This document shows, piece after piece, positions 1 to 18,058 of a DNA stretch of 28,748 bases. This stretch comes from Acidobacteriota bacterium (GTDB lineage: Bacteria; Acidobacteriota; UBA6911; JACQSX01), in assembly GCA_036507075.1 (NCBI GenBank), contig DASXQR010000046.1, forward strand, positions 1 through 28,748, read 5' to 3'. The notes beneath the pieces are model-generated. The model was not told the origin of the DNA and ran no database searches. It was given only the letters and a program-made list of their open reading frames with translations. Position 1 is the stretch's first letter. Each line of letters starts with the position of its first letter. The translations under genes and the position numbers were made by a program.

Positions 1-71
1 AACTAAGGGCGGACAAGTTGGAGCTTGTCGCACGCAGCTAATGACGCTTGGAATCATTGCCGGGTCGATTG

Positions 72-309
72 CTCTGGAAGTTCATGTCCCTTGACCAGGT
101 GACTGAAGCATTCTTAGATGAAAACATTCAACGTGAATGTCAAAGGCGTCCTGTTCACTGTGCAGAAACCGCTGCCGCTGATGAGGTCCGGGTCGGCCAT
201 CGTGTTGAATGCCTCGATCAACGGCCATAAGGCGGTGCTCAACTCCTCCGTCTACGCCGCGTCCAAGGCTGCGGTCCTCAACTTGACCAAAAACCTCTCG
301 ACGGGCTGA
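72..309 (+). pseudogene. Short-chain dehydrogenase/reductase (SDR) internal fragment, frameshifted and truncated
   Basis: KFMSLDQVTEAFLDE in one frame continues as TFNVNVKGVLFTVQ...VYAASKAAV (YxxxK catalytic motif) in another; no N-terminal TGxxxGIG; ends at the repeat element at 308. Confidence 0.8.
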
Positions 310-562
310 CTAAGGCCTGTCACCCAGGCGGACGCGTAATGACTGACGGATTTGAAATTTGACTTGAACGCCTTCTGTTTTCCCGGCGCAGACCAGGGAA
401 GATGTCCGCTGAACTCCGCCCGCTGCGATTATCCGCGGGACTTCGCGCTTGCGAATTAGAGAAACCGACAGCGATAAGCGAAATCTTGGCCACTGCAAAC
501 ATCAGCATCTGGAAAAAAAATCTACATCCTGAGGTAAATTTGCGGGGTGACAGGCACTGGTC
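308..562. mobile_element. Small non-autonomous element (MITE-like) with terminal inverted repeats
   Basis: GACTAAGGCCTGTCACCC at 308-325 and GGGTGACAGGCACTGGTC at 545-562 are inverted; the left ~100 bp recurs at 17164-17269 and 17289-17366; no transposase. Confidence 0.55.
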
Positions 563-579
563 CTTCTCAGAAAGACCAC

Positions 580-891
580 GCCCAGTTGTTCATCGGCGAC
601 AAAGGGATGCTGTTCAGTGACGGGCCCGGCGCCCACGGTTGCTGCCTGAAGAGCAGTTCAAAGACTACCCGACGCCGCCTGAAACGCTCCCGCGTTCGCC
701 CGGCCACTATAACGAGTGGATCCTGGCGTGCAAATGCCTCGGCTCGGCGCCCGTCTCGAACTTTCCGGCTGGACCACCGAGTCGAACCACCCCGGCAGCG
801 TGGCCTACGGACTGGAAAGAAGATTGAGTGGGATTATGCAAAGCTGCGCGCCAGTAACGCCCCGGAAGTGGACAAGTTCATCCGTCGCTGA
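580..891 (+). pseudogene. Gfo/Idh/MocA-family oxidoreductase C-terminal fragment, several frameshifts
   Basis: Pieces LFIGDKGMLFSD / LLPEEQFKDYPTPPETLPRSPGHYNEWILACK / TESNH / RTGKKIEWDYAKLRASNAPEVDKFIRR spread over three frames. Confidence 0.75.
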
Positions 892-906
892 GAGACTCAA
901 ACACGT

Positions 907-937
907 AAATAGTGGGCACAGTTGAAGATTTACTTTC
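907..937 (+). repeat. 31-bp direct repeat, copy 1 (copy 2 at 18255-18285)
   Basis: AAATAG(TG/CA)GGCACAGTTGAAGATTTACTTTC; last 23 bp identical in both copies. Confidence 0.9.
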
Positions 938-1013
938 GAGGGTTCTGTTTGAGTCTTAGGCGCCGACACGAGTTTCCGGAGTTGCCTTCAGTTACTCATG
1001 CCTTCCACGCATG

Positions 1014-1076
1014 GATCATATGATCTAAATCTCTTGAAAAATTCTATTGTTTTTCTGAAGTTAAGATCATATGATC
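1014..1076 (+). promoter_or_regulatory. Sigma70-like promoter with two perfect palindromic operators
   Basis: GATCATATGATC at 1014-1025 and 1065-1076; TTGTTT (1047-1052), 17 bp, TATGAT (1070-1075), with the -10 inside the second palindrome. Confidence 0.7.
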
Positions 1077-1127
1077 AAAAGAGGCAGAATCCACGAATGC
1101 TGTTTTTTCTATTGCTAGGAATTCCTA

Positions 1128-1493
1128 TTGGAACGCAACTTACGAGAGCAACTGGCCAGTTTGGCTCGAAGTAGAAAAACTCGGCGGGTAGCGTATGAAT
1201 TCCCATGTGAATGGAAACCTAGTGAGGTGGTCAACCCCTGCGACGGCCTCGTATTTACCGACGTCGGCGCCTGGGAGTTCATAGCAGAACTACTCGAAGC
1301 AGACCATCCGATTGAAATCGTGAAGCTTGCAAAACCTCAGGGTCGAACGGCGTTCGTGATGAAGGTGGAAATGGGAAACGAGTATCCGAGGCTGTACATA
1401 AAGCTTCAGGCAGGCAGTGGCCAGGTCCTTGGGCGCAGTTTCCATTACAGCGAGCACGGCCGAGGAGTAAGAAAAGATGAAAACGAACAATAG
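1128..1493 (+). CDS. MqsR-like (RelE-fold) putative toxin
   Basis: 121 aa, C-terminal LYIKL...SFH signature as in MqsR-type RNases; overlaps an MqsA-like gene; TTG start uncertain. Confidence 0.65.
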   Translation: MERNLREQLASLARSRKTRRVAYEFPCEWKPSEVVNPCDGLVFTDVGAWEFIAELLEADHPIEIVKLAKPQGRTAFVMKVEMGNEYPRLYIKLQAGSGQVLGRSFHYSEHGRGVRKDENEQ

Positions 1494-2019
1494 TTTAGGC
1501 GAAATTTCTCCGAGTATTTTGAGTTGTCCTAATTGCGATAGCAACTTGATCGAAACTCAAACGGTTGAGCACCAATTCAAATACGGAGTCGGAAGCGACG
1601 CAGCAGAACTCGTAGCAGACCTCCCGGTCAGAATTTGCAAACGTTGCAATTTAAAATTCTTAGATGAGGCTGCTGAGGTACTGAAGCACGAAGCGATATG
1701 CCGGCATCTAGGCGTTTTAACGCCGGCTGAAATTATGGAGGTCAGACAGGAGTATCAACTAAGCCGAGCAGAATTTTGCGAAATTACAAAAATCGGGGAG
1801 GCAACGCTGGGACGTTGGGAGAGAGGAGCGCTCATTCAGAATGCTGCAAACGATCAATTCCTTTGCCTGCTGAAATTCCCCGAGAATCTCGAACGTCTAA
1901 AACAGCGGAGCAAAGGTTGTTTTCAGAAAGATACAAGTAAACGATTTAAGTTTCTTCAGCCTGATGTTGATCTTTGGACGAAGGCTCGCTGTTTCAGATT
2001 GCGACGGCTAGGAGCTTGA
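1477..2019 (+). CDS. mqsA: MqsA-family antitoxin (Zn ribbon + XRE HTH)
   Basis: CPNC...CKRC zinc ligands, then LTPAEIMEVRQEYQLSRAEFCEITKIGEATLGRWERG HTH; extra C-terminal tail. Confidence 0.85.
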   Translation: MKTNNSLGEISPSILSCPNCDSNLIETQTVEHQFKYGVGSDAAELVADLPVRICKRCNLKFLDEAAEVLKHEAICRHLGVLTPAEIMEVRQEYQLSRAEFCEITKIGEATLGRWERGALIQNAANDQFLCLLKFPENLERLKQRSKGCFQKDTSKRFKFLQPDVDLWTKARCFRLRRLGA

Positions 2020-3831
2020 ATGTACGTACTTACGTTTTATTCGTTTAAAGGCGGCGTGGGGCGAAGTATGGCTCTGATGAATGTTGCAGCCAGTCTCGCT
2101 GAGACAGGCCGCAGAGTTTTGGTTGCGGATTTTGATTTGGAAGCTCCAGGCCTCGATACTTTCGGAATACCTAAGCCATCGGGCCCTACAGCTGGCTTAA
2201 TTGAATATGTAACGACATATTTGAAAACGTCTACATCCCCGCATTTGCTGGATTATGTATACGAATCCGTAGGTATAGGAAAGGACGGCGGCCGCTTGTG
2301 GGTTATGCCTGCCGGTCGACGGGATATGTCATATGCTCAGCAACTTAATTCTATTGATTGGCAGGAACTCTACGCGCGCCAGGATGGATTTCTTATGTTT
2401 GAGGATCTTAGGCTTCAGTGGAGAGAACTCCTTAAACCGGATTATGTCCTAATCGACTCTAGAACTGGCCACACTGACGTAGGAGGAATTTGCACTCGGC
2501 AGCTTCCGGATACTGTAGTCGTTTTCTTCTTTCCCAATGATCAGAATTTGATTGGTCTTCAGCAGATAGTTAGCGAAATACGTGCGGAACGCAAACCGCC
2601 ACAGAATAAGGAAATCCAGCTTATGTTCGTAGCGTCGAACGTCCCAAACCTTGATGACGAAGAGGAGATTCTAGCCGACCGCCTGAGGATCTTTCGTGAG
2701 CGCCTGAAATACCGGGAGTTGGCCGCCACTATCCAAAGGTACGACAGCCTGACTCTGTTAAACCAAAGCATTTTTACCAAAGAGCGACCCCGAACTAGTC
2801 TTGCTAGACAATATCATCAGCTTGCCAAGACTATTATCGAACAGAATCCGGAAGATGCGGAGGGAGCAGTCACATTTATTGAACACCTCAGTGCAGGGCG
2901 TTTAAGAGGGCGGCCATGGCGCCAGCAAGATCTGTCGAAACGTCTTGATTCAATTCAGCGGCTTCATTCAACCGACAAGCAGGTGTTAGTTGCACTTGCT
3001 AAGTATCGAAAGCTGCAGGGCCTCCACAAAGATGCAATTGATCTCTTCGATAGAGTTGAGCAGCTGGGGCTAAAGACAGCCGAGGTATTTGTTGAACGTG
3101 CAGAAAGTAAATTGGTTTTAGAAGCAGCGGATGGTGCCAAGAACGACCTCTTTGAAGCTTTACAGACGACCGGTGGCTCGTCAACTCACATTTTAAGGGC
3201 GATTCGTTTGATTGGCCAGATCGACGACCAGCTTTTGCCGAAAGCTGTAATTCTAAACGGTGTCTCAGGGCTCGATGCAGGCCAAAGGTATGTCCTGGTG
3301 AAGGATTTGCAGCGCTCATATGCTGGTCATGAGGCAGTGCTAAAGCTCTTTGGAATAGAATCTGGCATTGGACCTATTAGCAGCAATATAAAAGCGGATA
3401 TAGTCCTTAGCCTTATCGGCTTGGGACGTTACAGAGAGGCCATGCAGACGATTAGCCTCATAAGAGATCCGGAGAGCTTTGATGTCGTCGAAGCATTTAA
3501 CTACGCCATGGCGGAATGGGGAGATACAGGTGTGCCTCCGGCCGATTTGTTCCGTCGGGCAGCAGCCTTCAGTAAGCAGTTTGACACTGGCAATTTCAAA
3601 CAATGCATGGCGGTGAGTTTTTGGGCAATCGGGAACGTTGCCGAGGCCAGACAGTCTTTAGACAAATCACGGGAGATCAAAAAACGAGTTTCTGGTACGG
3701 AATTCAGTTGTTGGCGGTATCTGCAGGTCGAAGATGACGAGTTTTTTACAGACCTTGGAGAAATCGAACAATTACTAGAAGGCAGCACTCTGTTGCCGTA
3801 CTTTATGAGGCGTCAAACGGCGACAAATTGA
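2020..3831 (+). CDS. ParA/MinD-like ATPase (KGGVGR variant) fused to a TPR-like helical region
   Basis: TFYSFKGGVGRS deviant Walker A, DFDLEAPG, YVLIDSRTG; helical repeat-like C-terminal half; ATG directly follows the mqsA stop. Confidence 0.85.
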   Translation: MYVLTFYSFKGGVGRSMALMNVAASLAETGRRVLVADFDLEAPGLDTFGIPKPSGPTAGLIEYVTTYLKTSTSPHLLDYVYESVGIGKDGGRLWVMPAGRRDMSYAQQLNSIDWQELYARQDGFLMFEDLRLQWRELLKPDYVLIDSRTGHTDVGGICTRQLPDTVVVFFFPNDQNLIGLQQIVSEIRAERKPPQNKEIQLMFVASNVPNLDDEEEILADRLRIFRERLKYRELAATIQRYDSLTLLNQSIFTKERPRTSLARQYHQLAKTIIEQNPEDAEGAVTFIEHLSAGRLRGRPWRQQDLSKRLDSIQRLHSTDKQVLVALAKYRKLQGLHKDAIDLFDRVEQLGLKTAEVFVERAESKLVLEAADGAKNDLFEALQTTGGSSTHILRAIRLIGQIDDQLLPKAVILNGVSGLDAGQRYVLVKDLQRSYAGHEAVLKLFGIESGIGPISSNIKADIVLSLIGLGRYREAMQTISLIRDPESFDVVEAFNYAMAEWGDTGVPPADLFRRAAAFSKQFDTGNFKQCMAVSFWAIGNVAEARQSLDKSREIKKRVSGTEFSCWRYLQVEDDEFFTDLGEIEQLLEGSTLLPYFMRRQTATN

Positions 3832-3996
3832 CACACTGACGACGTGACGTCCGGTAAGGTTTCATGATCCGGGCCAATAATTCGAATCATAGAGGTATCG
3901 CAAGAGGCGATACTTTCTTTTATGCGTCTCACCATCAAATGATGTAATTTACTGAAAACTGGACTTTCTCACCGAGGAATTCAATCCTGGTAATAA

Positions 3997-4118
3997 TGAA
4001 GAAGCCGTTGCTGAAATGAAGCCGGTTTTGAAAACGCCACGATGAAAGTCCCCCGTGCACTCGTTCCAGAGGTCCGACAATTAATTGCAAAGAGAAGGAA
4101 GGCTCGTGCAAAGAAGAC
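3997..4118 (+). pseudogene. C-terminal remnant of an antitoxin-like protein of the DUF4258-partner type
   Basis: With one frameshift reads NEEAVAE-EAGFENATMKVPRALVPEVRQLIAKRRK, resembling from memory the EEAVAEDEA...MEVP.ELVP.VRELIAK tail of such proteins; directly precedes attC. Confidence 0.55.
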
Positions 4119-4215
4119 GCGTAGCAAAACATTGCAGCCGTCCAGGCGCGCGACGGTAACCCACCCTTGCAACAGTTTGCTTGCCCCGCTTGCGGCCGAA
4201 CGTAAAACGTTATGC
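4119..4215 (+). other. attC site 1 (slightly degenerate)
   Basis: R'' GCGTAGC (4119-4125), 5 nt, L'' ATTGCAGCCG ... CGGCCGAAC L', 7 nt, R' GTTATGC (4209-4215). Confidence 0.7.
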
Positions 4216-4258
4216 AGAAGCAGACGACCCGCTGCGGTCGCCCAATGAAGGCTGACCC

Positions 4259-6703
4259 GTGGCTCTGAAGAAATCCCAGCTCTACAGCTCGATCTGGCAA
4301 AGCTGCGACGAACTGCGCGGCGGCATGGACGCATCGCAGTACAAGGACTACGTCCTCACACTACTGTTTATGAAGTACGTGTCGGACAAGCACGCCGGCA
4401 AGTCTGACGCGCTCATCGAAGTGCCCAAGGGAGGCGGCTTCGCCGACATGGTGAAGCTGAAGGGCGACAAGGAGATCGGCGACAAGATCAACAAGATTAT
4501 CGGCCGGCTCGCCGAGGCCAACGACCTCAGCGGCGTGATCGATCAAGCCGACTTCAACGACGAGAGCAAGCTCGGCGCGGGCAAGGAGATGCAGGATAGG
4601 CTCTCGAAGCTGGTCGCGATCTTCGATGGCCTCGATTTCCGCGCCAACCGCGCTGAAGGCGATGACCTCCTGGGCGACGCCTACGAGTACCTGATGCGCC
4701 ACTTCGCCACGGAGAGTGGCAAGAGCAAGGGGCAGTTCTACACCCCGGCTGAGGTGTCCCGCATCATGGCTCAAGTGGTTGGCATCGGCGCCGACACCCG
4801 GCAGGACCAGACCATCTACGACCCCACCTGCGGCTCAGGATCGCTGCTGCTCAAGGCGGCAGACCAGGCGCCGCACGGCATCACCATCTACGGTCAGGAA
4901 AACGACGTTGCCACATGGGCGCTAGCGCGAATGAACATGTTCCTGCATGCCCATCCGACCCACGATCTTTGGCGCGGCAACACGCTCGCCGCACCGCATT
5001 TCAAGAATGAAGACGACAGTCTCAAGACCTTTGACTTCGCGGTGGCGAATCCGCCCTTCTCCGCTAAGGCCTGGTCCAGCGGGCTCGACCCGGCCAACGA
5101 CGCGTTCCGGCGTTTCAAGTACGGCATCCCGCCTGCCAAGAACGGGGACTACGCTTTCCTTCTGCACCTGATCGCCTCGCTCAAGAGCAACGGCAAAGGC
5201 GCGATCATCCTGCCACACGGCGTGCTCTTCCGCGGCAACAAGGAGGCCGACATCCGCCGCAACCTCATCCAGCGTGGCCTCATCAAGGGCATCATCGGCC
5301 TGCCCGCGAACCTCTTCTACGGCACCGGCATCCCGGCCTGCATCGTGGTTATTGATAAGGAGAACGCCCACGCCCGCACTGGCATCTTCATGATCAACGC
5401 CAGCAAGGGTTTCCTCAAGGACGGCAATAAAAACCGCCTGCGTGCCCAGGACATCCATAAGATCGTGGACGTATTCAACCGGCAAGTCGAGCTGCCGCGC
5501 TATGCGCGCATGGTGCCGGTGAGCGAGATCGCGAGCCCCTCTAACGACTACAACCTCAACATCCCCCGCTACATCGATTCGAGCGAGCCAGAGGATCTGC
5601 ACGACCTCGACGCGCACCTGAACGGCGGCATCCCCAATCGCGACATCGACGCGCTCGATGCCTACTGGACCGTCTTCCCCTCGCTGCGCCAGGCGCTGTT
5701 CAAGGATCATGGCCGGACGGGCTACAGCGTGACCCGCGTCGAGACGCACCAGGTGAAGCCCGCCATCCTCGGCCATTCTGAGTTCAGCGCTTATGCGAGG
5801 AGCGTCGGGGCCGTCATCAATGTCTGGTGCAAGGCGCACGAGCCGCAGCTCAAGGGCCTCAAGGTCAATGACCTTCCAAGACAGGTCATCCACACCCTGT
5901 CGGAAGACCTGTTCGCAAGCCTCGGCGACTTGCCGCTGCTAAGCCGCTACGACGTCTACCAGCGCTTGATGGACTACTGGGCGGAGACGATGCAGGACGA
6001 TGTGTACCTGATCGCCGCGGACGGCTGGGTCGAGGCCGCCAAACCGCGCGGGATCATCGACGACAAGGAAAAAAAGATCAAGGAAACGCCGGACCTGACC
6101 ATCGGCCGCAAAAAGTACAAGATGGACCTGGTCCCGCCGACACTGATCGCCGCGCGCTACTTCGCCAAGGAGCAAGCCTCCATCGACGCGTTACAAACCA
6201 AACAGGAAATCGCTGCCCGCGAGTTGGAGGAATTCGTCGAGGAACACACCGGCGACGAGGGCTTGCTGACGGACGCCACCAACGACAAGGGCAAGGTCAC
6301 CAAGGGCGGCGTGAAGGACCGGATCAAGGCTGTCGAAGGTGAGTCGGAAAACGACGAAGAGCGCGATGCCCTTACGCGTTGCCTGGAGCTGATCGAAGCG
6401 GACAGTGACGCCAGCAAGGCCGTCAAGGACGCCCAGGCTGCACTTGATGAGCAGGTGCTGGCAAAGTACGTCACGCTCACAGATGCCGAGATCAAGACAT
6501 TGGTGGTCGAGGACAAGTGGTTCGCCAGCATCCGCGACGGCATCGAGGGCGAGGTGCAGCGGCTGACCCAGCAACTGGCCGAGCGGGTGAAGGAACTGGA
6601 AGGACGCTACGCCCGGCCGCTGCCGGAACTGGAGCAGGGGGTGGAGGCGTTCACCGCCAAGGTCGAGGGACACTTTAAGAAGATGGGACTGGTTTGGGGA
6701 TGA
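4259..6703 (+). CDS. hsdM: Type I RM N6-adenine methyltransferase subunit M (long form)
   Basis: GQFYTP, DPTCGSGS (motif I), NPPF (motif IV), LPHGVLFRG. Confidence 0.97.
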   Translation: MALKKSQLYSSIWQSCDELRGGMDASQYKDYVLTLLFMKYVSDKHAGKSDALIEVPKGGGFADMVKLKGDKEIGDKINKIIGRLAEANDLSGVIDQADFNDESKLGAGKEMQDRLSKLVAIFDGLDFRANRAEGDDLLGDAYEYLMRHFATESGKSKGQFYTPAEVSRIMAQVVGIGADTRQDQTIYDPTCGSGSLLLKAADQAPHGITIYGQENDVATWALARMNMFLHAHPTHDLWRGNTLAAPHFKNEDDSLKTFDFAVANPPFSAKAWSSGLDPANDAFRRFKYGIPPAKNGDYAFLLHLIASLKSNGKGAIILPHGVLFRGNKEADIRRNLIQRGLIKGIIGLPANLFYGTGIPACIVVIDKENAHARTGIFMINASKGFLKDGNKNRLRAQDIHKIVDVFNRQVELPRYARMVPVSEIASPSNDYNLNIPRYIDSSEPEDLHDLDAHLNGGIPNRDIDALDAYWTVFPSLRQALFKDHGRTGYSVTRVETHQVKPAILGHSEFSAYARSVGAVINVWCKAHEPQLKGLKVNDLPRQVIHTLSEDLFASLGDLPLLSRYDVYQRLMDYWAETMQDDVYLIAADGWVEAAKPRGIIDDKEKKIKETPDLTIGRKKYKMDLVPPTLIAARYFAKEQASIDALQTKQEIAARELEEFVEEHTGDEGLLTDATNDKGKVTKGGVKDRIKAVEGESENDEERDALTRCLELIEADSDASKAVKDAQAALDEQVLAKYVTLTDAEIKTLVVEDKWFASIRDGIEGEVQRLTQQLAERVKELEGRYARPLPELEQGVEAFTAKVEGHFKKMGLVWG

Positions 6704-7995
6704 GCACTGAGGCCAGACAGGTCAAGGAACCTTCCGCCAGCAACTTGGCCCAGGCCGACGTGGCCGACGTACCGCCGGGCTACAAACGTACTGAGGCGGG
6801 AGTGATTCCGCAAGATTGGAACGCAGAGCCGCTTCTGACCGTGCTTCGGCTCCCGACGGGTCAGGTTGACCCGCGTCGCGAGCCATACCGCTCGATGGTA
6901 CTGGTTGCACCTGATCACGTAGAAGTGGCAACAGGTCGCCTACTCACGAGGGAGACATCGGCTGAGCAGCAGGCTATCAGCGGCAAGTACCCGTTCAGGT
7001 CGGGAGACATTGTCTACAGCAAGATTCGCCCTTACCTGCGAAAAGCAATCCTTGCGGACTTCGACGGTCTTTGTAGTGCGGACATGTATCCGCTGTCACC
7101 GACACCCGATGTCTCACCCGGCTTCATGCTGGCAGTTCTACTGGGTCACGACTTCTCGACCTTTGCTGAAGGTGTCTCTGCGCGCAGTGGCATTCCGAAG
7201 ATCAACAGAGATGAACTAGCTGAGTACCGTGTCGCCCTCCCTTCGCACCCCGAACAACGCGCCATCGCCGAGGTGTTATCGGATGTGGCTGGATTGCTCG
7301 GGGCGTTGGAGACGCTAATCGCCAAGAAACGGGCCATCAAGCAGGGCGCCATGCAACAACTCCTCACCGGCAAGACCCGCCTGCCGGGCTTCAGCGGGGA
7401 GTGGGACGCGAAGCGGCTGGGGGACTTCGCGTCGATCCGCAATCAGAAGCTGCTTCCAGCCAACCTGGCTCCAGAGACCCCGTGCGTGGAACTGGAGCAT
7501 ATTGGTCAAAACGACGGGCGGCTGCTGGCGTGTTCAGCGGCAAAGAATTCAACATCGATCAAGTACAAGTTCCTAACTGGCGATGTGCTGTTTGGCCGCC
7601 TTCGTTCGTATCTTCGCAAGTTCTGGCTCGCCGACCGTGACGGAATCTGCACGACAGAGATATGGCCACTGGTTGTCGATCCTCAGCAGGCTGTCGGCGG
7701 GTTTCTTCATGCTGTCGTGCAAACCGATCGGTTCATCGAGGCTTCGAGCATTTCATACGGCACTCACATGCCACGTGCAGACTGGGGAGTGATGCGAAAC
7801 TTCGAGATCTATCTTCCCCAATTAGATGAACAGACTGCTATCGCGACAGTCCTTTCGGACATGTATGCCGAGATCGTCGCGCTGGAGCACCGCCGCGACA
7901 AGACCCGCGCGATCAAGCAGGGCATGATGCAGCAGCTCCTCACCGGCCGCCTGCGGTTGGTGAAGCCGGCATCGCAACCGGAGGCGGCGTGCTGA
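6700..7995 (+). CDS. hsdS: Type I RM specificity subunit S
   Basis: Two TRDs each followed by EQxAIAxVLSD...AIKQGxMQQLLTG; ATGA overlap with the hsdM stop. Confidence 0.95.
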   Translation: MSTEARQVKEPSASNLAQADVADVPPGYKRTEAGVIPQDWNAEPLLTVLRLPTGQVDPRREPYRSMVLVAPDHVEVATGRLLTRETSAEQQAISGKYPFRSGDIVYSKIRPYLRKAILADFDGLCSADMYPLSPTPDVSPGFMLAVLLGHDFSTFAEGVSARSGIPKINRDELAEYRVALPSHPEQRAIAEVLSDVAGLLGALETLIAKKRAIKQGAMQQLLTGKTRLPGFSGEWDAKRLGDFASIRNQKLLPANLAPETPCVELEHIGQNDGRLLACSAAKNSTSIKYKFLTGDVLFGRLRSYLRKFWLADRDGICTTEIWPLVVDPQQAVGGFLHAVVQTDRFIEASSISYGTHMPRADWGVMRNFEIYLPQLDEQTAIATVLSDMYAEIVALEHRRDKTRAIKQGMMQQLLTGRLRLVKPASQPEAAC

Positions 7996-8525
7996 ACACC
8001 TTCGCCAAGTTTCTTCTGGTCTCAACTTCCTTGTCCCCGCTGTTGGGCGCGGTAGCCGTTAACCAATTCGCCCGTGGCGAGCCCATGGGGCGCTGGGGTG
8101 CTTGGCTGGTTGCAGCTCTGCTCCTGGTGTTCCTCTGCTGGGCTCTCTTGCGATACTCGGCCAAGAACGCGCAACAGCACGCTTTCCGCATCAAGGAGTT
8201 CGAGCGCAACGACAAGGAAGTGCTGGCTTTTCTAGTCACGTATCTACTGCCGTTTCTATCCACCGACAAGATGGGCTTCACCGGCAGCTGGCTAACGGGT
8301 GCATATGTGCTCGCCATCATCTTTCTCGTCATCGCTCATGCAGGCGCGTTTCACTTCAACCCGGTCATGGGGCTGCTCGGATATCACTTCTATGCCGTCA
8401 AGAACGACGACGGTATTTCCCATCTGCTGATCAGCAAGGAAGAGTTGCGGCGGCCGGGCAAGGACGTTCCGACAGTGCGGCTCGCTCACAACCTCTATCT
8501 GCACACCGGGGGTGCGGATGCTTGA
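7989..8525 (+). CDS. kwaA: Kiwa KwaA-like membrane protein
   Basis: Four hydrophobic segments, TYLLPF and FNPVMGLLGYHFY motifs; directly upstream of a KwaB-like gene. Confidence 0.7.
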   Translation: MLNTFAKFLLVSTSLSPLLGAVAVNQFARGEPMGRWGAWLVAALLLVFLCWALLRYSAKNAQQHAFRIKEFERNDKEVLAFLVTYLLPFLSTDKMGFTGSWLTGAYVLAIIFLVIAHAGAFHFNPVMGLLGYHFYAVKNDDGISHLLISKEELRRPGKDVPTVRLAHNLYLHTGGADA

Positions 8526-9396
8526 GAACTTCCAGCTTGTGGCGGTCGTCAAGCAAGGCCAGATTCGTCTGCTGCGGATTCCACTTCATCAGAGTTTGCA
8601 GCAGAAGCTTGCGGAGAGCTGGCAAGTTCAGTTCGACGCATTTGTCGGAGACGTACAGGAGATCGACTTCAACCCCGGCTACCAGCCGGAGCAGCACGAA
8701 CGCTTCTGTCTGCAAGACTATGACCTGCCCGACTCGTTGGCGAACGAAACCAGCCAGACAATTCAGAACCTCGACCCAATCAATAACAACGAAGCGCTCG
8801 TCGATTCGATCAAGGGCATCGTGGCCTTCGCGCGCGACGCCGAGGGAGCGGAACTTGTATTATTTCAGAATTTCAGCCGCTCCCACGTGATCCAGCCCGG
8901 ACGCTTTCTGTTCCTGCAGAACAATACCTATAAGACAACGGAACACTCGGGGCTGACCCTCGACAGCAGATTGAGCGCTGTGTATCTGCCCGTCGACAGG
9001 AAGCTGCTCTTCCACAACTTCCGCACTGTCAATAGTTTTCTGCCGCTAGCCGACTTCTATGAGGAGGCCTCGGAGCAGCAGATTCGCGACGTGCTGGCTC
9101 ACGAGCGACTGGCCGCGGAGGACGCGGACGCCTTGGCGACGGATTCCAATCAATGGTTTCGTAAGCGGTTTGCGATGCTCAGGGATTCAGGTGTCCTCGA
9201 CCAGTACTCCGCGAAGCAGATCCAACAGCGGGCAAAGGGGTACGACGTGGAAGTTCATATCTCAAAGGGCAAGATCGTCTTTCCCGCGGAGAAGCCGGCG
9301 GCCAAGAAGCTATTGCAGTTTCTGAATGAAGAGCTCTTCCTGGGAGCGATTACCGACACACTGTACGAAACCAACTCAAAGAGGGAAGCTGACTGA
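8518..9396 (+). CDS. kwaB: Kiwa KwaB-like (DUF4868) protein
   Basis: ~290 aa soluble; LFQNF, GLTLD, LLFHNF and terminal LLQFLNEELF...YETNSKR pattern typical of DUF4868. Confidence 0.75.
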   Translation: MLENFQLVAVVKQGQIRLLRIPLHQSLQQKLAESWQVQFDAFVGDVQEIDFNPGYQPEQHERFCLQDYDLPDSLANETSQTIQNLDPINNNEALVDSIKGIVAFARDAEGAELVLFQNFSRSHVIQPGRFLFLQNNTYKTTEHSGLTLDSRLSAVYLPVDRKLLFHNFRTVNSFLPLADFYEEASEQQIRDVLAHERLAAEDADALATDSNQWFRKRFAMLRDSGVLDQYSAKQIQQRAKGYDVEVHISKGKIVFPAEKPAAKKLLQFLNEELFLGAITDTLYETNSKREAD

Positions 9397-12300
9397 TGAA
9401 CGCCGTCGGCCAGCGGGAACTCCTCACGCAGAAGAGCGTGGTTGCGTTCCTCAAGGACGTGCTGGGCTATGCCTACCTCGGCCACTGGAAGGACCGCCCC
9501 GACAACAGCAACGTCGAGGAGGCCCTACTCACCGATTGGCTTAAGCGCCAGAGCCATAGCGAGAAGATCATCGGAAAGGTGCTGTTCGAGCTGGGAAAGG
9601 CCACCGCGTTCGGCGGCAGCAAAACACTCTACGACGCGAACCGCGAGGTGTACAGCTTGCTCCGCTACGGCGTGAAGGTCCGGCCGGACGTGGGCGAGCA
9701 GCACGTCACGGTCTGGCTGATCGACTGGGAGAACCCTGGCTATAACGACTTCGCCATCGCCGAGGAAGTGACCGTGGCCGGGGAGAATAACAAGCGGCCC
9801 GACATCGTGCTCTACGTCAACGGCATCGCCCTCGGCGTGCTGGAGCTGAAGCGTTCCATCGTATCGGTAACGGAAGGTATCCGGCAGAACCTGGACAGCC
9901 AGAAAAAGGACTTCATCCGGCCGTTTTATGCCACGGTGCAACTCGTAATGGCGGGCAACGACACCGAGGGACTGCGTTACGGCGTGATCGAGACGCCGCA
10001 GAAGTACTGGCTGCGCTGGAAGGAAGGCGACGCACAGGCGGCTGCCGGCGACAACCCGCTGCTGCGCGAGTTGGGCCAGCTCTGCGCGAAGGAGCGTCTG
10101 CTCGAGCTCGTGCATGATTTCATCGTGTTCGACGCAGGCATAAAGAAGACCTGCCGCCACCACCAGTACTTCGGCGTACGCGCAGCGCAGACGCGCGTGC
10201 AGCGGCGCGAGGGCGGCATCCTCTGGCACACCCAGGGCAGCGGCAAGAGCCTAATCATGATCTGGCTCGCAAAGTGGATCCGCGAGCACGTGACAAATAG
10301 CAGGGTATTGATCATTACCGACCGCACGGAGCTAGACGAGCAGATAGAGAAGTTCTTCCTGGGCGTCAACGAAGGCATCTATCGCACGAAGAGCGGCGCA
10401 GACCTCGTACGCGTTCTCGACGTGGGCGAGGAGTGGCTGATCTGCTCGCTGATCCACAAGTTCGGCGCGTCGGAGGAAGGCGACATCGATCTCTTCCTCG
10501 AGGACATTCGAAGCCACTTGCCCAAGGGGTTCTACGCCAAGGGTGACATCTTCGTCTTCGTGGACGAGTGCCACCGCACGCAATCCGGCAAGCTGCATGA
10601 CGCGATGAAGGCGCTGCTGCCGGGGGCGATGCTGATCGGCTTCACCGGGACGCCGCTGCTAAGGGACGACAAGCGGCGGAGCATCGAGACCTTCGGGCCG
10701 TACATCCACACCTACAAATACGACGAGGCGGTGCGCGACCGCGTGGTGCTCGACCTGCGCTACGAGGCGCGCGACATCGACCAGAACATCACGTCGCAAT
10801 CCAAGATCGATCAGTGGTTCGAGCTCAAGACTCGGGGATTGACCGACGTGGCGAAGGCGCAGCTCAAGCAGCGCTGGGGCACGATGCAGAAGGTGTTGAG
10901 CGCCCGCGACCGGTTGACCCAAATCGTCAACGACATCCTGCTTGACATGGAGACGCGCGATCGGCTCAAGAGCGGCCACGGAAACGCACTGCTGGTCTCG
11001 GGCAGCATCTACTCGGCCTGTCGGTTCTTTGAGATGTTCCAGAAAACGGATCTGGCGGGCAGGTGCGCGATTGTCACGTCCTACAGGCCGTCGCCGGCGG
11101 ACATCAAAGGTGAGGAGACAGGCGAGGGACTGACGGAGAATTTGCGGCAGTACGACATCTACCGGAAGATGCTCGCCGCGCACTTCAACGAGCCCGAAGA
11201 AACGGCTATGTACAAGGTCGAGCAGTTCGAGAAGGAGGTGAAGAAGCGCTTCGTCGACGAACCCGGCCAGATGAAGCTGCTGATCGTTGTGGACAAACTG
11301 CTGACCGGATTCGACGCGCCGCCAGCCACCTACCTCTACATCGACAAACAGATGCAGGACCACGGGCTGTTTCAGGCGATTTGCCGGGTCAACCGCCTGG
11401 ATGGTGAGGACAAGGAGTACGGCTACATCATCGATTACAAGGATCTCTTTCGGTCGCTGGAGGAGTCCATCAAGGACTACACCGGAGAAGCCTTCGCTGG
11501 CTACGATAAGGCCGACATCGAGGGCTTATTAAAGGATCGGCTTCAGCAGGACCGGGACCGGCTGGAGGAGGCGCGCGAGGCGGTCAAAGCGCTGTGCGAA
11601 CCGGTGGAGCCGCCGCGCGATACGGCGGCTTATCTCCGCTACTTCTGCGCAGTCGACAGCGGCAATGCCGAGCAGTTGAAGGACAACGAGCCGAGGCGCG
11701 TAGCGCTCTACAAGCTCGCTGCCGCGTTCCTGCGGGCTTACGCCAATCTGGCCAACGAAATGCTCGAGGCCGGGTACTCCGCGGCGGAGGCGCGTGAAAT
11801 CAAGGGCGAGGTCGACCACTACGAGAAAGTGCGCGAAGAGGTCAAGCTAGCCAGCGGTGACTACATCGACATGAAGATGTACGAGCCGGCCATGCGCCAC
11901 CTGCTGGACACCTACATCCGGGCCGAAGAAAGCGAGAAGCTCTCGGGCTTCGACGATCTGACGCTGGTGCAGCTGATCGTGGAGCGCGGCGAAGCGGCCG
12001 TTGACGCGCTTCCCAGGGGCCTGCGCGAAAACCGCGAGGCGGTGGCGGAAACAATCGAGAACAACGTCCGCCGGCTGATCATCGACGAGATGGCCGTTAA
12101 CCCGAAGTACTTCGAGAAGATGTCCGAGCTCCTCAACGCTCTGATCGCGCAGCGCAAGCAGGAGACGATGGACTACAAGGCCTACCTGGCAAGGATCGTC
12201 GCGCTTACCAAACAAGTGAGCCAGCCAGAGACCCAGTCGTCCTATCCCTCGAGCATCAACAGCGCCGCACTGCGCGCGCTGTATGACAACCTGGAAGATG

Positions 12301-12539
12301 CCAGGGTGCTGGCAGTACGGGAGCGATCGGCGCCTTACGGCTCCGCTCCAGACGCGGAAGCCAGAGAAGCAAAGGCTCTGGCGCTGGATCGTGCCGTCCG
12401 CCGGATAAAGAAGGCGGACTGGCGCGGCAACAAGTTCAAGGAACGCGAGGTCCGCAACGCTATCCAGTCGGTACTCGGTGCGAATAGGGGTCTGGTGGAC
12501 ACTATCTTTGAGATTGTAAAGAATCAGCGTGAGTACTAA
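9396..12539 (+). CDS. hsdR: Type I RM restriction subunit R
   Basis: RPDIVLYVNG..ELK nuclease motif, HTQGSGKS, DECHR, GFTGTP, LLTGFD, QAICRVNR. Confidence 0.97.
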   Translation: MNAVGQRELLTQKSVVAFLKDVLGYAYLGHWKDRPDNSNVEEALLTDWLKRQSHSEKIIGKVLFELGKATAFGGSKTLYDANREVYSLLRYGVKVRPDVGEQHVTVWLIDWENPGYNDFAIAEEVTVAGENNKRPDIVLYVNGIALGVLELKRSIVSVTEGIRQNLDSQKKDFIRPFYATVQLVMAGNDTEGLRYGVIETPQKYWLRWKEGDAQAAAGDNPLLRELGQLCAKERLLELVHDFIVFDAGIKKTCRHHQYFGVRAAQTRVQRREGGILWHTQGSGKSLIMIWLAKWIREHVTNSRVLIITDRTELDEQIEKFFLGVNEGIYRTKSGADLVRVLDVGEEWLICSLIHKFGASEEGDIDLFLEDIRSHLPKGFYAKGDIFVFVDECHRTQSGKLHDAMKALLPGAMLIGFTGTPLLRDDKRRSIETFGPYIHTYKYDEAVRDRVVLDLRYEARDIDQNITSQSKIDQWFELKTRGLTDVAKAQLKQRWGTMQKVLSARDRLTQIVNDILLDMETRDRLKSGHGNALLVSGSIYSACRFFEMFQKTDLAGRCAIVTSYRPSPADIKGEETGEGLTENLRQYDIYRKMLAAHFNEPEETAMYKVEQFEKEVKKRFVDEPGQMKLLIVVDKLLTGFDAPPATYLYIDKQMQDHGLFQAICRVNRLDGEDKEYGYIIDYKDLFRSLEESIKDYTGEAFAGYDKADIEGLLKDRLQQDRDRLEEAREAVKALCEPVEPPRDTAAYLRYFCAVDSGNAEQLKDNEPRRVALYKLAAAFLRAYANLANEMLEAGYSAAEAREIKGEVDHYEKVREEVKLASGDYIDMKMYEPAMRHLLDTYIRAEESEKLSGFDDLTLVQLIVERGEAAVDALPRGLRENREAVAETIENNVRRLIIDEMAVNPKYFEKMSELLNALIAQRKQETMDYKAYLARIVALTKQVSQPETQSSYPSSINSAALRALYDNLEDARVLAVRERSAPYGSAPDAEAREAKALALDRAVRRIKKADWRGNKFKEREVRNAIQSVLGANRGLVDTIFEIVKNQREY

Positions 12540-13257
12540 ACGGCATCAAATCGAGGTCCGAGGGCTGCCCATCGAGGTGGTCCGCAAGGACATCAAGAAT
12601 CTCCATGTGGGCGTGTATCCCCCGGGTGGACGGGTACGAGTAGCCGCACCGCTGCGCCTTGATGATGACGCCGTGCGGCTCGCCGTCATCTCACGCCTGG
12701 GATGGATTCGTCGGCAGCAGGCGGGCTTCGTGCAGCAGGTGCGCCAGTCAGAGCGCGAGTTCGTGACTGGCGAAAGCCACTACTTCGAGGGCCGTCGCTA
12801 CCGTCTCCGTGTGATCGAACATGCGGGCCCGCCGTCTCTGGGCCTGCCGAATAACACCACCATGGAATTGCGTGTGCCTCCGGAGACCAACCGGCAGAAG
12901 CGGGAAGCCTTGCTTCAGGCCTGGTATCGGCGACGGCTTCGGGGGCATATTCCACCACTTCTCGCCAAGTGGGAAACCAGGGTCGGCGTAATGGTTGCCG
13001 AAGCACGCATTAAGAAGATGAAAACGCGCTGGGGGAGCTGCAATGCCGCGGCACGGCGTATCTGGCTGAATCTCGAGCTGGCCAAGAAGTCGCCTTCGTG
13101 CCTGGAGTACATCCTAGTGCACGAGATGGTCCACATCCTTGAACGGTGCCACAATGAACGGTTCCGCGTGCTGATGGACACGCTGATGCCCACATGGCGC
13201 CTATGCCGGGAGGAACTGAATCGGGCACCCTTGGCGCATGAGGAGTGGAAGTATTGA
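12529..13257 (+). CDS. M48/YgjP (DUF45)-family metallopeptidase-like protein, common hsdR neighbour
   Basis: KMKTRWGSC, LNLEL, HEMVH zinc motif, HNERF. Confidence 0.9.
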   Translation: MSTKRHQIEVRGLPIEVVRKDIKNLHVGVYPPGGRVRVAAPLRLDDDAVRLAVISRLGWIRRQQAGFVQQVRQSEREFVTGESHYFEGRRYRLRVIEHAGPPSLGLPNNTTMELRVPPETNRQKREALLQAWYRRRLRGHIPPLLAKWETRVGVMVAEARIKKMKTRWGSCNAAARRIWLNLELAKKSPSCLEYILVHEMVHILERCHNERFRVLMDTLMPTWRLCREELNRAPLAHEEWKY

Positions 13258-13272
13258 GCCACCCTGGGCACT

Positions 13273-13334
13273 GCATAACAATCGGTTCCAGCGGCTGGCG
13301 CTGCGCGGCCTGCCACTGAACCGGAGCGTTAGAC
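13273..13334 (+). other. attC site 2 (canonical, 62 bp)
   Basis: R'' GCATAAC, 5 nt, L'' GTTCCAG ... L' CTGAAC (one extra-helical base), 6 nt, R' GTTAGAC; 15 nt after the stop codon. Confidence 0.9.
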
Positions 13335-13339
13335 CGCCG

Positions 13340-14080
13340 ATGAACCGTCCGCACGCCATGAATACCGACAACTTTCTGGCAGGTCACAGGAGGTACTTTT
13401 TAGGATCGTACGATCAATTCGTCTCATTCGGTGGACCATGCGTTTACTTCCATCGCGAATGCCTCCGCGAGCGAGATAGATCGTTTCTCTCGCGTCGCCA
13501 TATTGAGATGTTGTACGCAACGCTCGCCGCGTGGGGCATGCACCGAATGGGCGACGCAGACAGAACGAAGACGAAGCTGACTGACTGGGAACAGTTTCAC
13601 GGATCCATTCTTGCGAATGCATCAGCGCTTGGCGACTTCCGCGAGTACAAGATCCTGGAAATCTCCGACGGCGATTACTCCGCTGCACTCAAGAGACTCC
13701 GGCCCATCTACGAGTCCCTCCGGTTGTCTGCGTCGGGAGCCACCGTTGTCGTGAACTCGAAGGCCTTGCACCACGTGCTGCCGGAGTTCATTCCTCCGAT
13801 TGATCGGCAGTACACGATTCGATTCTTCACCCAATCTCCCGATCGTTGGCGGGATTCGAAAGGGAAGTTCCGGCTGATCTCTTTGCCATCTGGACTGGAA
13901 GCTCAATTCTGCACCTTTTGTGAGACGTGCATTGCGTTCAAGCACCTGGCTGATCGGGTAGACCGCGCGCTGTTCGACAACGAGCGCAATCAGCATGGCG
14001 TCACCGCGCCAAAGGCCTTGGACAATGCGATAGTCAACTACGTCAGAATTGTCGGAGCAGCGAAGCCACCGGCGGTCTAA
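13340..14080 (+). CDS. Cassette-borne hypothetical protein, possibly HhH DNA-glycosylase-like
   Basis: Fills the cassette 13329-14148; YATLAAWGM and SKALHHVLPEFIPPIDR motifs; start is 13340 or 13358; TAA stop lies inside R''. Confidence 0.8.
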   Translation: MNRPHAMNTDNFLAGHRRYFLGSYDQFVSFGGPCVYFHRECLRERDRSFLSRRHIEMLYATLAAWGMHRMGDADRTKTKLTDWEQFHGSILANASALGDFREYKILEISDGDYSAALKRLRPIYESLRLSASGATVVVNSKALHHVLPEFIPPIDRQYTIRFFTQSPDRWRDSKGKFRLISLPSGLEAQFCTFCETCIAFKHLADRVDRALFDNERNQHGVTAPKALDNAIVNYVRIVGAAKPPAV

Positions 14081-14154
14081 CAAGGCGATGGGCCCAACGC
14101 CGGGGTAGCCGTTCTCGCGTCCCGCCCGGCGCCGATCGTCGCCAAACATTATGC
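14075..14154 (+). other. attC site 3 (R' degenerate)
   Basis: CGGCGGTCTAAC (14070-14081) is the exact 12-bp complement of the cassette start GTTAGACCGCCG; stems GGCGATG/CGTCGCC and CGCCGGG/CCCGGCG; R' reads ATTATGC. Confidence 0.8.
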
Positions 14155-14199
14155 GTACAACCAATCCGCCACGGTCCTGCGGTCGAGCTAGATAACCGC

Positions 14200-14481
14200 G
14201 TGCAGATCCGCTATGGTAATGATCCGACAACAGGACTATCCATACTTCTATCAACACGATGTTTCGGAGTGGGAAGTTGAAGATATTCTTGGCGACCGTT
14301 ACAAGACATTCTTGGACGGGATGATTATCGAATTGCAATCGGCCAGACTGAAGAGGGACGATATTTAAGGGGGTCTACGTTCCAGATCCTGACTCCCCAT
14401 TCTGTTTTCGTCATAACGGGATATGAGCTGAGTCCTAAGGCAAAGCCGGCAATCCGCCGTAGGAAAAAGAATAAACGATGA
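14200..14481 (+). pseudogene. DUF4258/BrnT-like toxin, multiply frameshifted
   Basis: Fragments QIRYGNDPTTGL, YQHDVSEWEVEDIL, GRDDYRIAIGQTEEGRYL, YVPDPD, SVFVITGYELSPKAKPAIRRRKKNKR; ATGA overlap with the next gene. Confidence 0.75.
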
Positions 14482-14520
14482 CTAAGGAAAAATATCTGGA
14501 TGGAATCAGGCTCGAGTTCC
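14478..14520 (+). pseudogene. N-terminal remnant of the cognate antitoxin
   Basis: MTKEKY then, after a frameshift, GWNQARV; similarity lost after about 14520. Confidence 0.55.
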
Positions 14521-14594
14521 TGGGGTGCGCAGTGATGATCGTTACAAGTACCGGGTTCAGAGGTCTCATGTCCGGGGACGGAGCCGCTCAGGGT

Positions 14595-14651
14595 TCCATC
14601 GCCGCGCAAAAAACGCACGGCTCGGCGTGGCTCATCGTTAAGCCATTAGCA
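14595..14651 (+). other. Right half of a degenerate attC (site 4)
   Basis: GCG-AAAAAA-CGC type loop, L'-like GCTCATC, then ATTAGCACAC just before ATG 14662; left half not recognisable. Confidence 0.4.
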
Positions 14652-14661
14652 CACACGTGAC

Positions 14662-15429
14662 ATGAACCTCGCCTTGCTGGACAGCCGACTCGTTGTAGCC
14701 GTGATTGCGGGCGTCCTGGGTTTCATCTTAGCGCTCCTGACCCAGAGGATCCTCGGCAAGCGGGGTCTCTTCACCTACTTCGTGTGGCACAACAGACTTG
14801 GCGTCTCCGCAGACGATGCGATATTCGGATCTGTGCGAGTTACGTGGAACGACAATCCTGTCGCGAACCTGTATTCTTCGACCGTCGAATTGCGGAATGA
14901 GAGTTTCAACGACTACGACAATGTCGTCGTCCGTGTGTTCACGAATGATACGTTTCTCCTTACGGAAAGGACAGACATCGTCGGAACCACCCACTTCCTC
15001 AACTGGACCGACGAGTTTTCGAATCGGCTTGTAGTACAGCCAGGCACACAGCCAACTATAGCTCAGCAAAATCTGTATAGGAGCCAGCGTGATTACTTGG
15101 TTCCGACTATGAATCGTGGGCAGATCGTGCGTTTCACTTTTCTAAATGCGCCGACGTCGGACAAGCCGTCGCTCTGGCTCGATATTTTGCATAAGGGCGT
15201 CAGGCTCAAGTTTCGCTTGGCCCAGACTCAGTTCCTCGGCGTTCCTCAACCTGCTGCCGCACTAGTGGGTGCGGCCCTCAGCCTGGTCGTTCTGGCAGTA
15301 GTGGTCTCACTCGTTGATAGTGTGTGAGTGGCGGCAATTCTGTGCCTAGTGTACGGATTGATCGTTCTGGTACCAGGAGCTCTGTCGATCAGGTTGTGGC
15401 GGTGGCTCAAAGATTTGTTGGGCGGTTGA
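14662..15429 (+). pseudogene. Cassette-type membrane protein (TM - soluble domain - 2 TM) with a premature stop
   Basis: TGA at 15325-15327 is followed in frame by VAAILCLVYGLIVLVPGALSIRLWRWLKDLLGG and a stop at 15429. Confidence 0.7.
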
Positions 15430-15445
15430 TAGCCCCGAATGTGCG

Positions 15446-15511
15446 CGGTAACAAATAAATGGTTATTGTCGCCCGCGAGTCTGCGGATCTGGCAACATCC
15501 GAGTGTTAAGC
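15446..15511 (+). other. attC site 5 (degenerate)
   Basis: CGGTAAC 16 nt after the restored stop, ATGGTT ... AACAT inner boxes, 6 nt, R' GTTAAGC. Confidence 0.5.
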
Positions 15512-15984
15512 CGCGACAAAAACCCTGGGTTGAACTAAATCCAGGGTCAGCCAGTGCGCAGGTGTTTGGAATCTCAATGTGCTTTCGAGCAGAAGCAGTC
15601 AGCCGGTGTTGCGAAAAGAGCGTCACTGAAGGAATGAAATCCATACAAGCGGCAATTGGTGAGGCGAAGTAGCCTGCTGAAGACCATCCAAATACACGAG
15701 TGACCTGCCGCCGTCCGTCGAGGAGGGAACGAGAACTTGGCCGGTGAGAAGGTGGAACCTCCTTAATACGTAGCTCACGGATGGCGGTTCGAACTCCCCA
15801 GTATCGCGACTATTGGAGGATGAGAAAACATTCAGAATTATCAGAGGGCGTACAGAGCCCTTACTGAGTTGATGGAACAACTTAATCCGTCTAAAACGAG
15901 AAAGAACGTATAATATGTACAGCGAGAGTCGACAACGTCAACCAAATCTCGGACCCTCGCCTTCATATCAAACGGAACCGCAAT

Positions 15985-17133
15985 ATGCCTGACCCGATCG
16001 AGACGTATCGCGCAGAGGCCACACAGCGCATCCAACTTGCAAATTCCCAAGGTGGGTGGGAAGGAATTCACACCGATTTCAAGGTATCGCTCGGTACAAC
16101 ACCGCGGGACCTCGCAAGACTCCTAAAACACATCCTGGCGTTTGGAAATACCCCGAGGAGCACCGAGGCATACATAATTTGCGGCGTCAGTGAGAATAAG
16201 CAAAATGGCACGTTCACTCACGTGGGCGTCTCAGACCAAGGATTCCCTTCATCCGAGAGACTGTATTCGTTGCTTAAAGAATATACCGATATCCGTGACG
16301 TCTTTATTGACGCCCATTTCTACCTCGACGACCGTCGGACACCGTACATCGTGATTCCACTCCAGTACGAGGGGCCGTGCGCCTTAATAAAAAAGTTTCA
16401 GGGAGCCGCTAGCACTGTGATCCCAGACGAAATTTACTGTCGGTACGGCAGTAGCAGCATGCCAGCAATGCCAAGAGACGTTCGCAGGATGCATGCGGAT
16501 TGGGCCACGTGGTTTCTTGATTGCCGATACGAGAAGAGTGCGGCTGCGATGGTAACGGCGCTATCAAAAAGATTTCCTCGGCACTCGTCGCTGACTACCA
16601 CAGGTGATTACGTCCGTCTCGTGTATGAGAGCGACGTCAGTGACGAATTTGGCCAGCGGACTGCGCCGGCTCTCATTCATGCATACTGGGGATTTGCTCC
16701 CGTACCACGCGCGGCATATGTCGCGAAACTCCCTCTCCGCGTCTTATTACGTAGCCTTCCCGATAAACGAGTTGTACAAGCCACAGTGCCGCTGCTTTCG
16801 CTAATCGCCGCGACGGATTCTCAAGAAAGCATTCAGCTAGCGAAGGAAACGCTGGAGCACTTGACCACCCATGGTCGCAATTTCTGCGACGTGCTTCGAA
16901 AAATCAAGCAGGATAAGGGAACATGGGTGGATTCGATGCTGCTGAGAGACCTCAATATCAAAGAGACTGACCTGCTTGACAGCAGTTATTACGAGTCACT
17001 CTTCACAAAAATGCTCAGGATGCAATCGGTTGATCGAAAAACACAACAGTATGTAGACCGCACCATTCGCGCGATTCAGGGAGAGAAGCATCGGCAAACG
17101 GCACGCGTGAAACAGTACCGCAGCGCTCGCTGA
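15985..17133 (+). CDS. Schlafen/AlbA_2-domain protein, possibly internally deleted
   Basis: DFK...LLKHILAFGNT...YIICGVSE and YCRYGSSS pattern of AlbA_2; remainder not recognised. Confidence 0.7.
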   Translation: MPDPIETYRAEATQRIQLANSQGGWEGIHTDFKVSLGTTPRDLARLLKHILAFGNTPRSTEAYIICGVSENKQNGTFTHVGVSDQGFPSSERLYSLLKEYTDIRDVFIDAHFYLDDRRTPYIVIPLQYEGPCALIKKFQGAASTVIPDEIYCRYGSSSMPAMPRDVRRMHADWATWFLDCRYEKSAAAMVTALSKRFPRHSSLTTTGDYVRLVYESDVSDEFGQRTAPALIHAYWGFAPVPRAAYVAKLPLRVLLRSLPDKRVVQATVPLLSLIAATDSQESIQLAKETLEHLTTHGRNFCDVLRKIKQDKGTWVDSMLLRDLNIKETDLLDSSYYESLFTKMLRMQSVDRKTQQYVDRTIRAIQGEKHRQTARVKQYRSAR

Positions 17134-17163
17134 GGCGCCTTGGAACGACTGCCTAGAACGACT

Positions 17164-17366
17164 GACTAGAGCCTGACACCGAGACGGACGCTAAATGGCT
17201 GCCGGGTTTGAAATTTGACTTGAACGAATCTTGTTTTCCCGGTGGGGCAGACCAGGGAAATGTTCGCTGGTTTTGCCGAGAAAGAAAAGACCAGTGCCTG
17301 TCACCCAGAAGGACGCTAAATGACTGCCGGATTTGAAATTTGACTCGAACGACTATTGTTTTCCGG
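17164..17366 (+). repeat. Two tandem diverged copies of the left end of the 308-562 element
   Basis: GCCTG(T/A)CACC..GGACGC..TTTGAAATTTGACT(T/C)GAACG..TGTTTTCC at 17164-17269 and 17289-17366. Confidence 0.85.
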
Positions 17367-17664
17367 GTGAGCCAACTAGGAAGGGCCTGTCTTGGCTGCC
17401 GGAACTGGCCCTTGCGCGCGCCAAACCGGTAGACGAGAAAGGCGCGCCCTGTCCTCTGGCTCGAGCACGTCTAGGCTCGCCCAGGCGGCCTCAATGGTTC
17501 CACGATTGGTCCGAGCTCGTCACCAGTGGCGAGCGGACATGGAATCGTCGAAGGCCTGATTCTTCGGACCGTCGCGTACATAGGTCCGGAGTAGATGCGC
17601 GGCAGATGAGGCGATCGGCACGCGGACATCTGGGCCCTTCGGGTGCGTCCTCTTCGACATCGAC

Positions 17665-18022: not shown

Positions 18023-18058
18023 CCTTCGGGGGTGAGTTCAAACAAAGATTTTTTTAGA

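Follow-up and report, generated by a model that had tools for sequence, protein, structure and literature searches.

Integron cassettes are moved by the integrase IntI, which acts at the crossover G|TT and recombines two attC sites in the form of their folded bottom strands; the resulting circle can enter attI, another attC or short genomic sites, and its attC can later be lost (10.1101/2022.09.11.507474). Cassettes also occur in clusters of attC sites lacking integrases (CALIN) and at single such sites (SALIN), where R- and L-box attC sites fold on the bottom strand, the stop codon lies just before R'' and no integrase is nearby (PMC4889954; Loot et al., 10.1101/2022.09.11.507474). Here we describe a segment with the same anatomy in a 28,748-bp contig of an Acidobacteriota bacterium (GCA_036507075.1, DASXQR010000046.1). 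The entire contig (C46) is the window of this analysis, and the genome is 6.1 Mb and 95.7% complete. The segment spans positions 4210–13328 and carries hsdM, hsdS, kwaA, kwaB, hsdR and a ygjP-like peptidase gene, that is, a type I restriction–modification (R-M) operon with a nested Kiwa system. At 9.1 kb and six genes, it differs from described CALIN and SALIN cassettes; the largest known cassettes are about 2 kb according to the survey that set the attC clustering threshold at 4 kb, twice that size (Cury et al., 2016, PMC4889954).

Defence genes are known cassette cargo. Darracq et al. (10.1101/2024.07.02.601686) ran IntegronFinder with default settings and report 783 defence systems in cassettes; as described there, none has more than two components and small type II and type IV systems are favoured, whereas the present unit combines the three subunits of a type I system with two genes of a nested system and a peptidase. 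R-M and Kiwa genes are both listed among Xanthomonas cassette genes, in an account that states neither type nor size (10.1101/2025.06.18.660453), and an XbaI R-M cassette is cited in PMC10661359. The literature searched, mostly at abstract level, holds no description of a type I R-M operon as a single cassette, and Tables S3–S4 of Darracq et al. and the Xanthomonas cassette lists could include cases.

Operons of similar layout have been described in other settings. The RRDM island of enteropathogenic Escherichia coli (RptR-hsdM-hsdS-darTG-hsdR-M48, 9.8 kb), which has been demonstrated to protect against phage, likewise places a further defence system after hsdS and ahead of hsdR, ends in an M48-type gene and is of similar size (PMC12255303). 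It is flanked by insertion sequences, has its own promoter and repressor and carries DarTG, whereas the present unit carries Kiwa, contains no repressor gene and has attC-type ends. Payne et al. (10.1101/2024.01.29.577857) describe variable defence passengers between hsd genes, as seen here, in a main text that mentions neither integrons nor Kiwa.

The operon and its ends

We scored attC sites with a covariance model built from 13 sites elsewhere in the same genome, excluding those of the window and with filters off. The features of the locus are as follows.

4119–4215, forward: upstream attC, decayed; 29.5 bits, E 7e-6; R'' is GCGTAGC instead of ending in AAC; folds poorly
4210–13328, forward: cassette, 9,119 bp, 60% GC; collinear with the 9,086-bp cassette of locus L176 at 75–78% DNA identity
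4210–4258, forward: non-coding leader; L176 and L050 have homologous leaders
4259–6703, forward: hsdM, long form, 814 aa; GTG start; PF02384, PF12161; PADLOC MTase_I 1317 bits; DPTCGSG and NPPF motifs
6700–7995, forward: hsdS; PF01420; ATGA overlap with hsdM; 35% identity to L176 HsdS
7989–8525, forward: kwaA, Kiwa membrane subunit; PADLOC KwaA E 1.7e-47
8512–9396, forward: kwaB, Kiwa, DUF4868; PADLOC KwaB E 8.9e-63
9396–12539, forward: hsdR, 1047 aa; PF04313, PF18766, PF22679; PADLOC REase_I 1487 bits; nuclease, Walker A and DECH motifs
12529–13257, forward: ygjP-like (DUF45/M48-type) metallopeptidase gene; PF01863 E 4e-59; HEMVH
13273–13334, forward: the cassette's own attC, intact, 62 bp; 36.4 bits; R'' GCATAAC; its R', GTTAGAC, is part of the next cassette
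13329–14148, forward: next cassette, one 246-aa open reading frame (ORF; 13340–14080); ends complementary over 12 bp
14075–14154, forward: third attC, decayed; 10.1 bits, E 0.96; R' ATTATGC; R-box pairing probability 0.02

The original prediction read this segment as a complete type I R-M, Kiwa and M48 operon packaged as one cassette. PADLOC profiles match HsdM, HsdS, HsdR, KwaA and KwaB, in agreement with the R-M and Kiwa part. Judged from its genes, the R-M set appears complete, with hsdM, hsdS and hsdR intact and every catalytic motif present, and kwaA adjoins kwaB in the gene pair predicted to form Kiwa. The gene labelled 'M48' contains the metallopeptidase-type HEMVH, and its family match is to the YgjP-like PF01863. 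All five gene junctions overlap, given the chosen start codons, and no attC divides the operon, the best internal model match reaching 7.3 bits (E 5.4), just as had been proposed. The cassette is richer in GC (60%) than its upstream (47%) and downstream (53%) flanks. No sigma-70-like promoter consensus was found in 3800–4300, and an Rfam scan of the window gave no matches.

The two ends are those of one cassette. The left end, GTTATGCAG, lies at 4209–4217, 50 nt 5' of the hsdM GTG codon at 4259, and the upstream R' within it (GTTATGC, 4209–4215) contains the G|TT crossover at which the cassette starts. At the right end, CTGCATAAC (13271–13279) is its exact 9-bp complement. The predicted coordinates of the boundaries and of the 62-bp attC hold. 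The model accepted the sites on both flanks (36.4 and 29.5 bits). In run X1, a soil metagenome that may be the source sample, the left junction and the right junction are each spanned by one contig, which shows no differences from the window.

The same genome shows how often such a match arises. It contains 34 attC-like sites, which form 19 consecutive same-strand pairs, and a perfect 7/7 match of R' to R'' occurs in just two: this cassette and one of 762 bp. Three other gaps exceed 4 kb (4,886, 8,685 and 9,222 bp) and show R'/R'' runs of only 1–5. Since the 9.1-kb gap alone among them matches 7/7, it carries the mark of a single cassette and the other long gaps reflect array decay. These counts bear on the idea that an ordinary R-M island came to lie by chance between two unrelated attC sites, which the abundance of sites, the other gaps of 8–9 kb and the frequent occurrence of this operon outside integrons (among the genome loci below) would allow. 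We regard such a coincidence as very improbable: L176 has the same two ends with the same spacing, L050 has them imperfectly, and an attC follows ygjP in nine relatives. L176 by itself largely refutes it.

Folding separates the two flanking sites. For 13273–13334 the minimum free energy structure of the bottom strand is the recombinogenic attC hairpin (z −2.1 versus shuffles; R-box pairing probability 0.63). This is the canonical fold anticipated for it, whereas the upstream site barely folds (z +0.7; R-box pairing probability about 6e-7), a decay that the original prediction does not mention.

Relatives sharing the ends

The comparison set comprised 79 HsdR loci taken from genomes, the best 80 of 444 metagenomic YgjP loci and 40 more loci from targeted searches. 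Four attC-bearing loci reach the hsdM start: the window, L176, L050 and L113.

The metagenomic locus L176 has the same six genes. There, GTTATGCAG lies 51 nt before hsdM, a homologous attC follows ygjP and the ends are complementary over 12 bp. Its HsdS differs from that of the window (35% identity) and has a different specificity. Its neighbours differ too: on the 5' side is a TIR-domain cassette whose own 7-bp ends match each other, and on the 3' side unrelated DNA. The attC before the giant cassette is reduced in L176 (1688–1707) to R'' + 6 nt + R' (GCCCAAC-GTGGAC-GTTATGC). With only 20 nt left, the upstream partner site has been lost there as well and the cassette is fused to the TIR cassette.

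The match at the ends bears on how the unit may have moved. Between the window and L176, 12 bases beyond the obligatory GTT and AAC are identical, while the rest of the leader agrees in about 24 of 43 columns (counted by eye). End bases kept while the leader diverged suggest selection on the circular form. Base pairing past GTT/AAC is of use only to the circular form, yet it was kept as the leader drifted, which argues that the 9-kb unit has passed through an excision cycle. A different history would be that the cassette ends are real, but that the R-M operon filled a small cassette which is now too long for IntI and travels in larger transfers, while small neighbours turn over at the flanking attC sites. 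Changed neighbours could then arise without movement of the giant unit, length lowers excision, no circle was seen in contigs and most relatives lack attC. We consider this history unlikely. An immobile integrated unit needs only GTT and AAC, but 9- and 12-bp end complementarity is kept across 22–25% DNA divergence; 17 of the 19 attC pairs of the genome have no perfect 7/7 match, and flanking DNA is not shared between copies.

The right end is found more widely. An attC lies directly after ygjP in nine relatives (L050, L113, L115, L120, L121, L134, L136, L141 and L176), scoring 14.9–45.2 bits; the three weakest have E >0.1, and L120 and L121 are near copies. All nine have R'' GCATAAC or a one-base variant 15–18 nt past the ygjP stop. 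Exact GCATAAC at that distance occurs in eight of 174 scorable loci, the window included; with at most one mismatch the count is 13 of 174, versus 123 of 8,898 control windows (1.4%). When the attC-bearing loci are aligned, homology ends at the G|TT crossover and the bases that follow differ in every locus. The stem pairs covary, with 86% of cells paired and none of 500 shuffles as high (relatedness was not controlled).

Could R-M operons of this clade have become cassettes several times, as a recurring substrate of cassette genesis? Attachment sites scattered over the YgjP tree and attC bodies of three sequence types, as judged by eye, would fit repeated capture. The shared R'' and its fixed distance from the stop make this improbable, as GCATAAC accounts for only two of the 34 R'' boxes of this genome, and the leaders and spacers are homologous.

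In L050, from an Ardenticatenaceae genome, GTTACACAG precedes hsdM by 50 nt and ygjP is followed by an attC. In that genome, four intI matches exceed the TIGR02249 cut-off, and one of them contains a stop. At L050 a group II intron-like reverse-transcriptase insertion splits hsdM (2907–5248), and a Fic gene (7401–8480) stands ahead of a duplicated hsdM tail, stretching the cassette to 11.7 kb. Widespread left-end remnants were considered and rejected: among 74 loci with an hsdM 5' end, two have exact GTTATGCAG (the window and L176), one has one mismatch and three have two, which is about the chance level, with the position of the L050 left end as the exception. The same ends thus stand in different arrays to different extents, both in L176, the left imperfectly in L050 and the right in nine relatives.

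What lies between the hsd genes varies. The passengers are Kiwa in the window and L176, DUF4357 in L113, Fic and reverse transcriptase in L050 and an AlbA/RecG-like gene in L136. Kiwa is present in eight of 71 complete hsdM–ygjP operons. Kiwa is therefore a variable passenger, and the conserved unit is the R-M chassis. The relatives support the proposed reading as a single cassette but not that of a fixed two-layer module.

Proposed mobility and distribution of the cassette family

By all features examined, the segment is a real integron cassette. Its size and gene number lie beyond the published range, and it belongs to a recurring family with cassette anatomy, ends conserved in diverged relatives with other neighbours, and swapped HsdS specificities and passengers. 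We think it probable that this family is old and that its giant cassettes, built on hsdM-hsdS-(passenger)-hsdR-ygjP, are excised whole by IntI. The 9.1-kb unit would then move as a single IntI substrate, as the comparison with relatives suggests.

IntI would excise the unit by attC × attC recombination. In the circle, the cassette 5' end would pair with R'' to give an attC stem free of mismatches; a model of the circle junction folds at −19.0 kcal/mol with an R-box probability of 0.97, versus −14.7 kcal/mol and 0.63 for the integrated site. The circle could re-integrate at the G|TT of attI, an attC or a genomic site. In a host with an upstream promoter, HsdM–HsdS would be expected to methylate DNA and HsdR to cut unmethylated phage DNA, and Kiwa, by homology, may add a membrane-triggered second layer of defence.

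Several observations weigh against this proposal. Excision drops with cassette length, as tested to about 3 kb (PMC5371416), and a 4-kb cassette was unrecovered in a capture screen (10.64898/2026.03.17.712381). In the window, the upstream attC carries AGC in place of AAC and is almost unfoldable, and no IntI over the cut-off was found in the 95.7%-complete genome. Neither a circle nor an empty 4209–13329 joint is among 15 of the 17 joints from contigs of runs X1 and X2, although contigs drop rare variants and their silence is no proof of absence. Intact full-length copies number only two. The left end of L050 has two mismatches and its hsdM contains the reverse transcriptase, and L113 has an attC but no left R'. 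Finally, 75 of the 84 relatives with at least 68% YgjP identity lack attC, and the YgjP sequences accompanied by an attC do not form one clade but are dispersed over the tree (approximately unbiased test, p ~1e-88; quick tree, clade test on a thinned set of 46 rows). On length, the same study found that at well-folding sites 3-kb cassettes are still excised efficiently on the lagging-strand template (PMC5371416), which makes a rare 9-kb event plausible.

The copy in the window is probably frozen. Five intI remnants are present in the genome (C29:7082–7591, C29:18648–18947, C150:217–411, C10:34622–34720 and C167:4146–4229), each of them truncated or with an internal deletion; the contigs concerned have attC sites as well. 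A candidate integrase beside attC sites on C81 is not IntI by score. The window contig has no intI, so the locus is CALIN-like rather than a complete integron (attI had no model search). With the upstream attC and the integrase genes decayed, the cassette is most likely fixed here unless IntI is supplied from outside. Runs X1 and X2 are soil metagenomes whose contigs were compared with window positions 1–20000.

Across the wider operon, the attC-bearing relatives are confined to close kin: all nine fall within the clade at ≥68% YgjP identity, whose named hosts come from 12 phyla, and none is among the 91 loci below 68%. The check on whether homologues share the boundaries gave a mixed result: those that keep an attC share them and have other neighbours, but most close relatives have no attC. 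A mostly attC-less and non-monophyletic distribution calls for gene exchange, for capture on several occasions or for repeated loss of the site. The common R'' and spacer speak for loss, as do R''-like remnants exactly 18 nt past the stop in four attC-less members (L040, L081, L116 and L063; three independent), a weak signal. In three Latescibacterota/Gemmatimonadota metagenome-assembled genomes (L035, L038 and L042), the operon starts 2–3 nt past the stop of a conserved upstream gene, and leader and attC are absent, as if it had been cleanly inserted between host genes.

Further attC-bearing full-length copies were found neither in 17 loci from 400 genomes of the same phylum nor in three viral loci, and 20 loci from the bacterium's own class and the class of genome G405 gave no attC-bearing copy. 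Of four other genomes searched for family members, one had a ygjP match, and only a weak one. On plasmids, 540 records match YgjP, all below 60%. We offer a broader scenario tentatively, as possible but doubtful: the cross-phylum clade (YgjP ≥68%) may descend from, and have been spread by, one family of 8–12 kb cassettes truly excised by IntI into arrays and genomic sites, the attC then usually being lost. The cassette would be a chassis that swaps HsdS and nested defence systems.

Neighbouring DNA and implications

Downstream, the 246-aa ORF of the next cassette has hypothetical and DUF6308 clusters as its language-model look-alikes. Possible further decayed attC sites lie at 14541–14650 and 15444–15535, around a 221-aa ORF; the second scores 7 bits, and 15450–15700 has an 80% copy beside an attC on C132. 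A 382-aa ORF at the end of the defence region (15985–17133) has a weak PADLOC PDC-S50 match (E 1.7e-8). Beyond it, a 300-nt, 93% duplicate of the 3' end of a metallo-beta-lactamase-fold gene occupies 17663–17962 and 20811–21110, and a Fic/DUF4172 gene (18405–19553, reverse strand) lies between the copies.

Upstream, an AT-rich block (1128–3831) holds an unnamed 121-aa ORF, an MqsA-like antitoxin and a 603-aa ParA/MinD-like ATPase matching PADLOC PDC-M28B. The block is probably a further unit of defence. The attC model and sequence comparison within the genome revealed no cassette start for it or elsewhere upstream of 4119. Two direct-repeat families (308–393, 17164–17249 and 17289–17374; 907–963 and 18255–18311) flank the whole defence region and have a few copies each on other contigs.

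Cassette size has been treated as a hard limit that explains streamlined defence cargo. A natural 9-kb, six-gene family with conserved ends challenges this limit and provides a natural substrate for asking how distant two attC sites may be and yet recombine. A survey run with the 4-kb default has no means of assigning such a unit to a pair of attC sites, which points to a detection bias. Models of cassette genesis are also constrained, as they must account for copying or capturing an operon of 9 kb in one piece. Through such a family, large R-M systems could pass from one phylum to another. If cassettes of 8–12 kb did spread the clade, giant multi-gene cassettes would be a regular class that the standard detection tool overlooks at its default of 4 kb.

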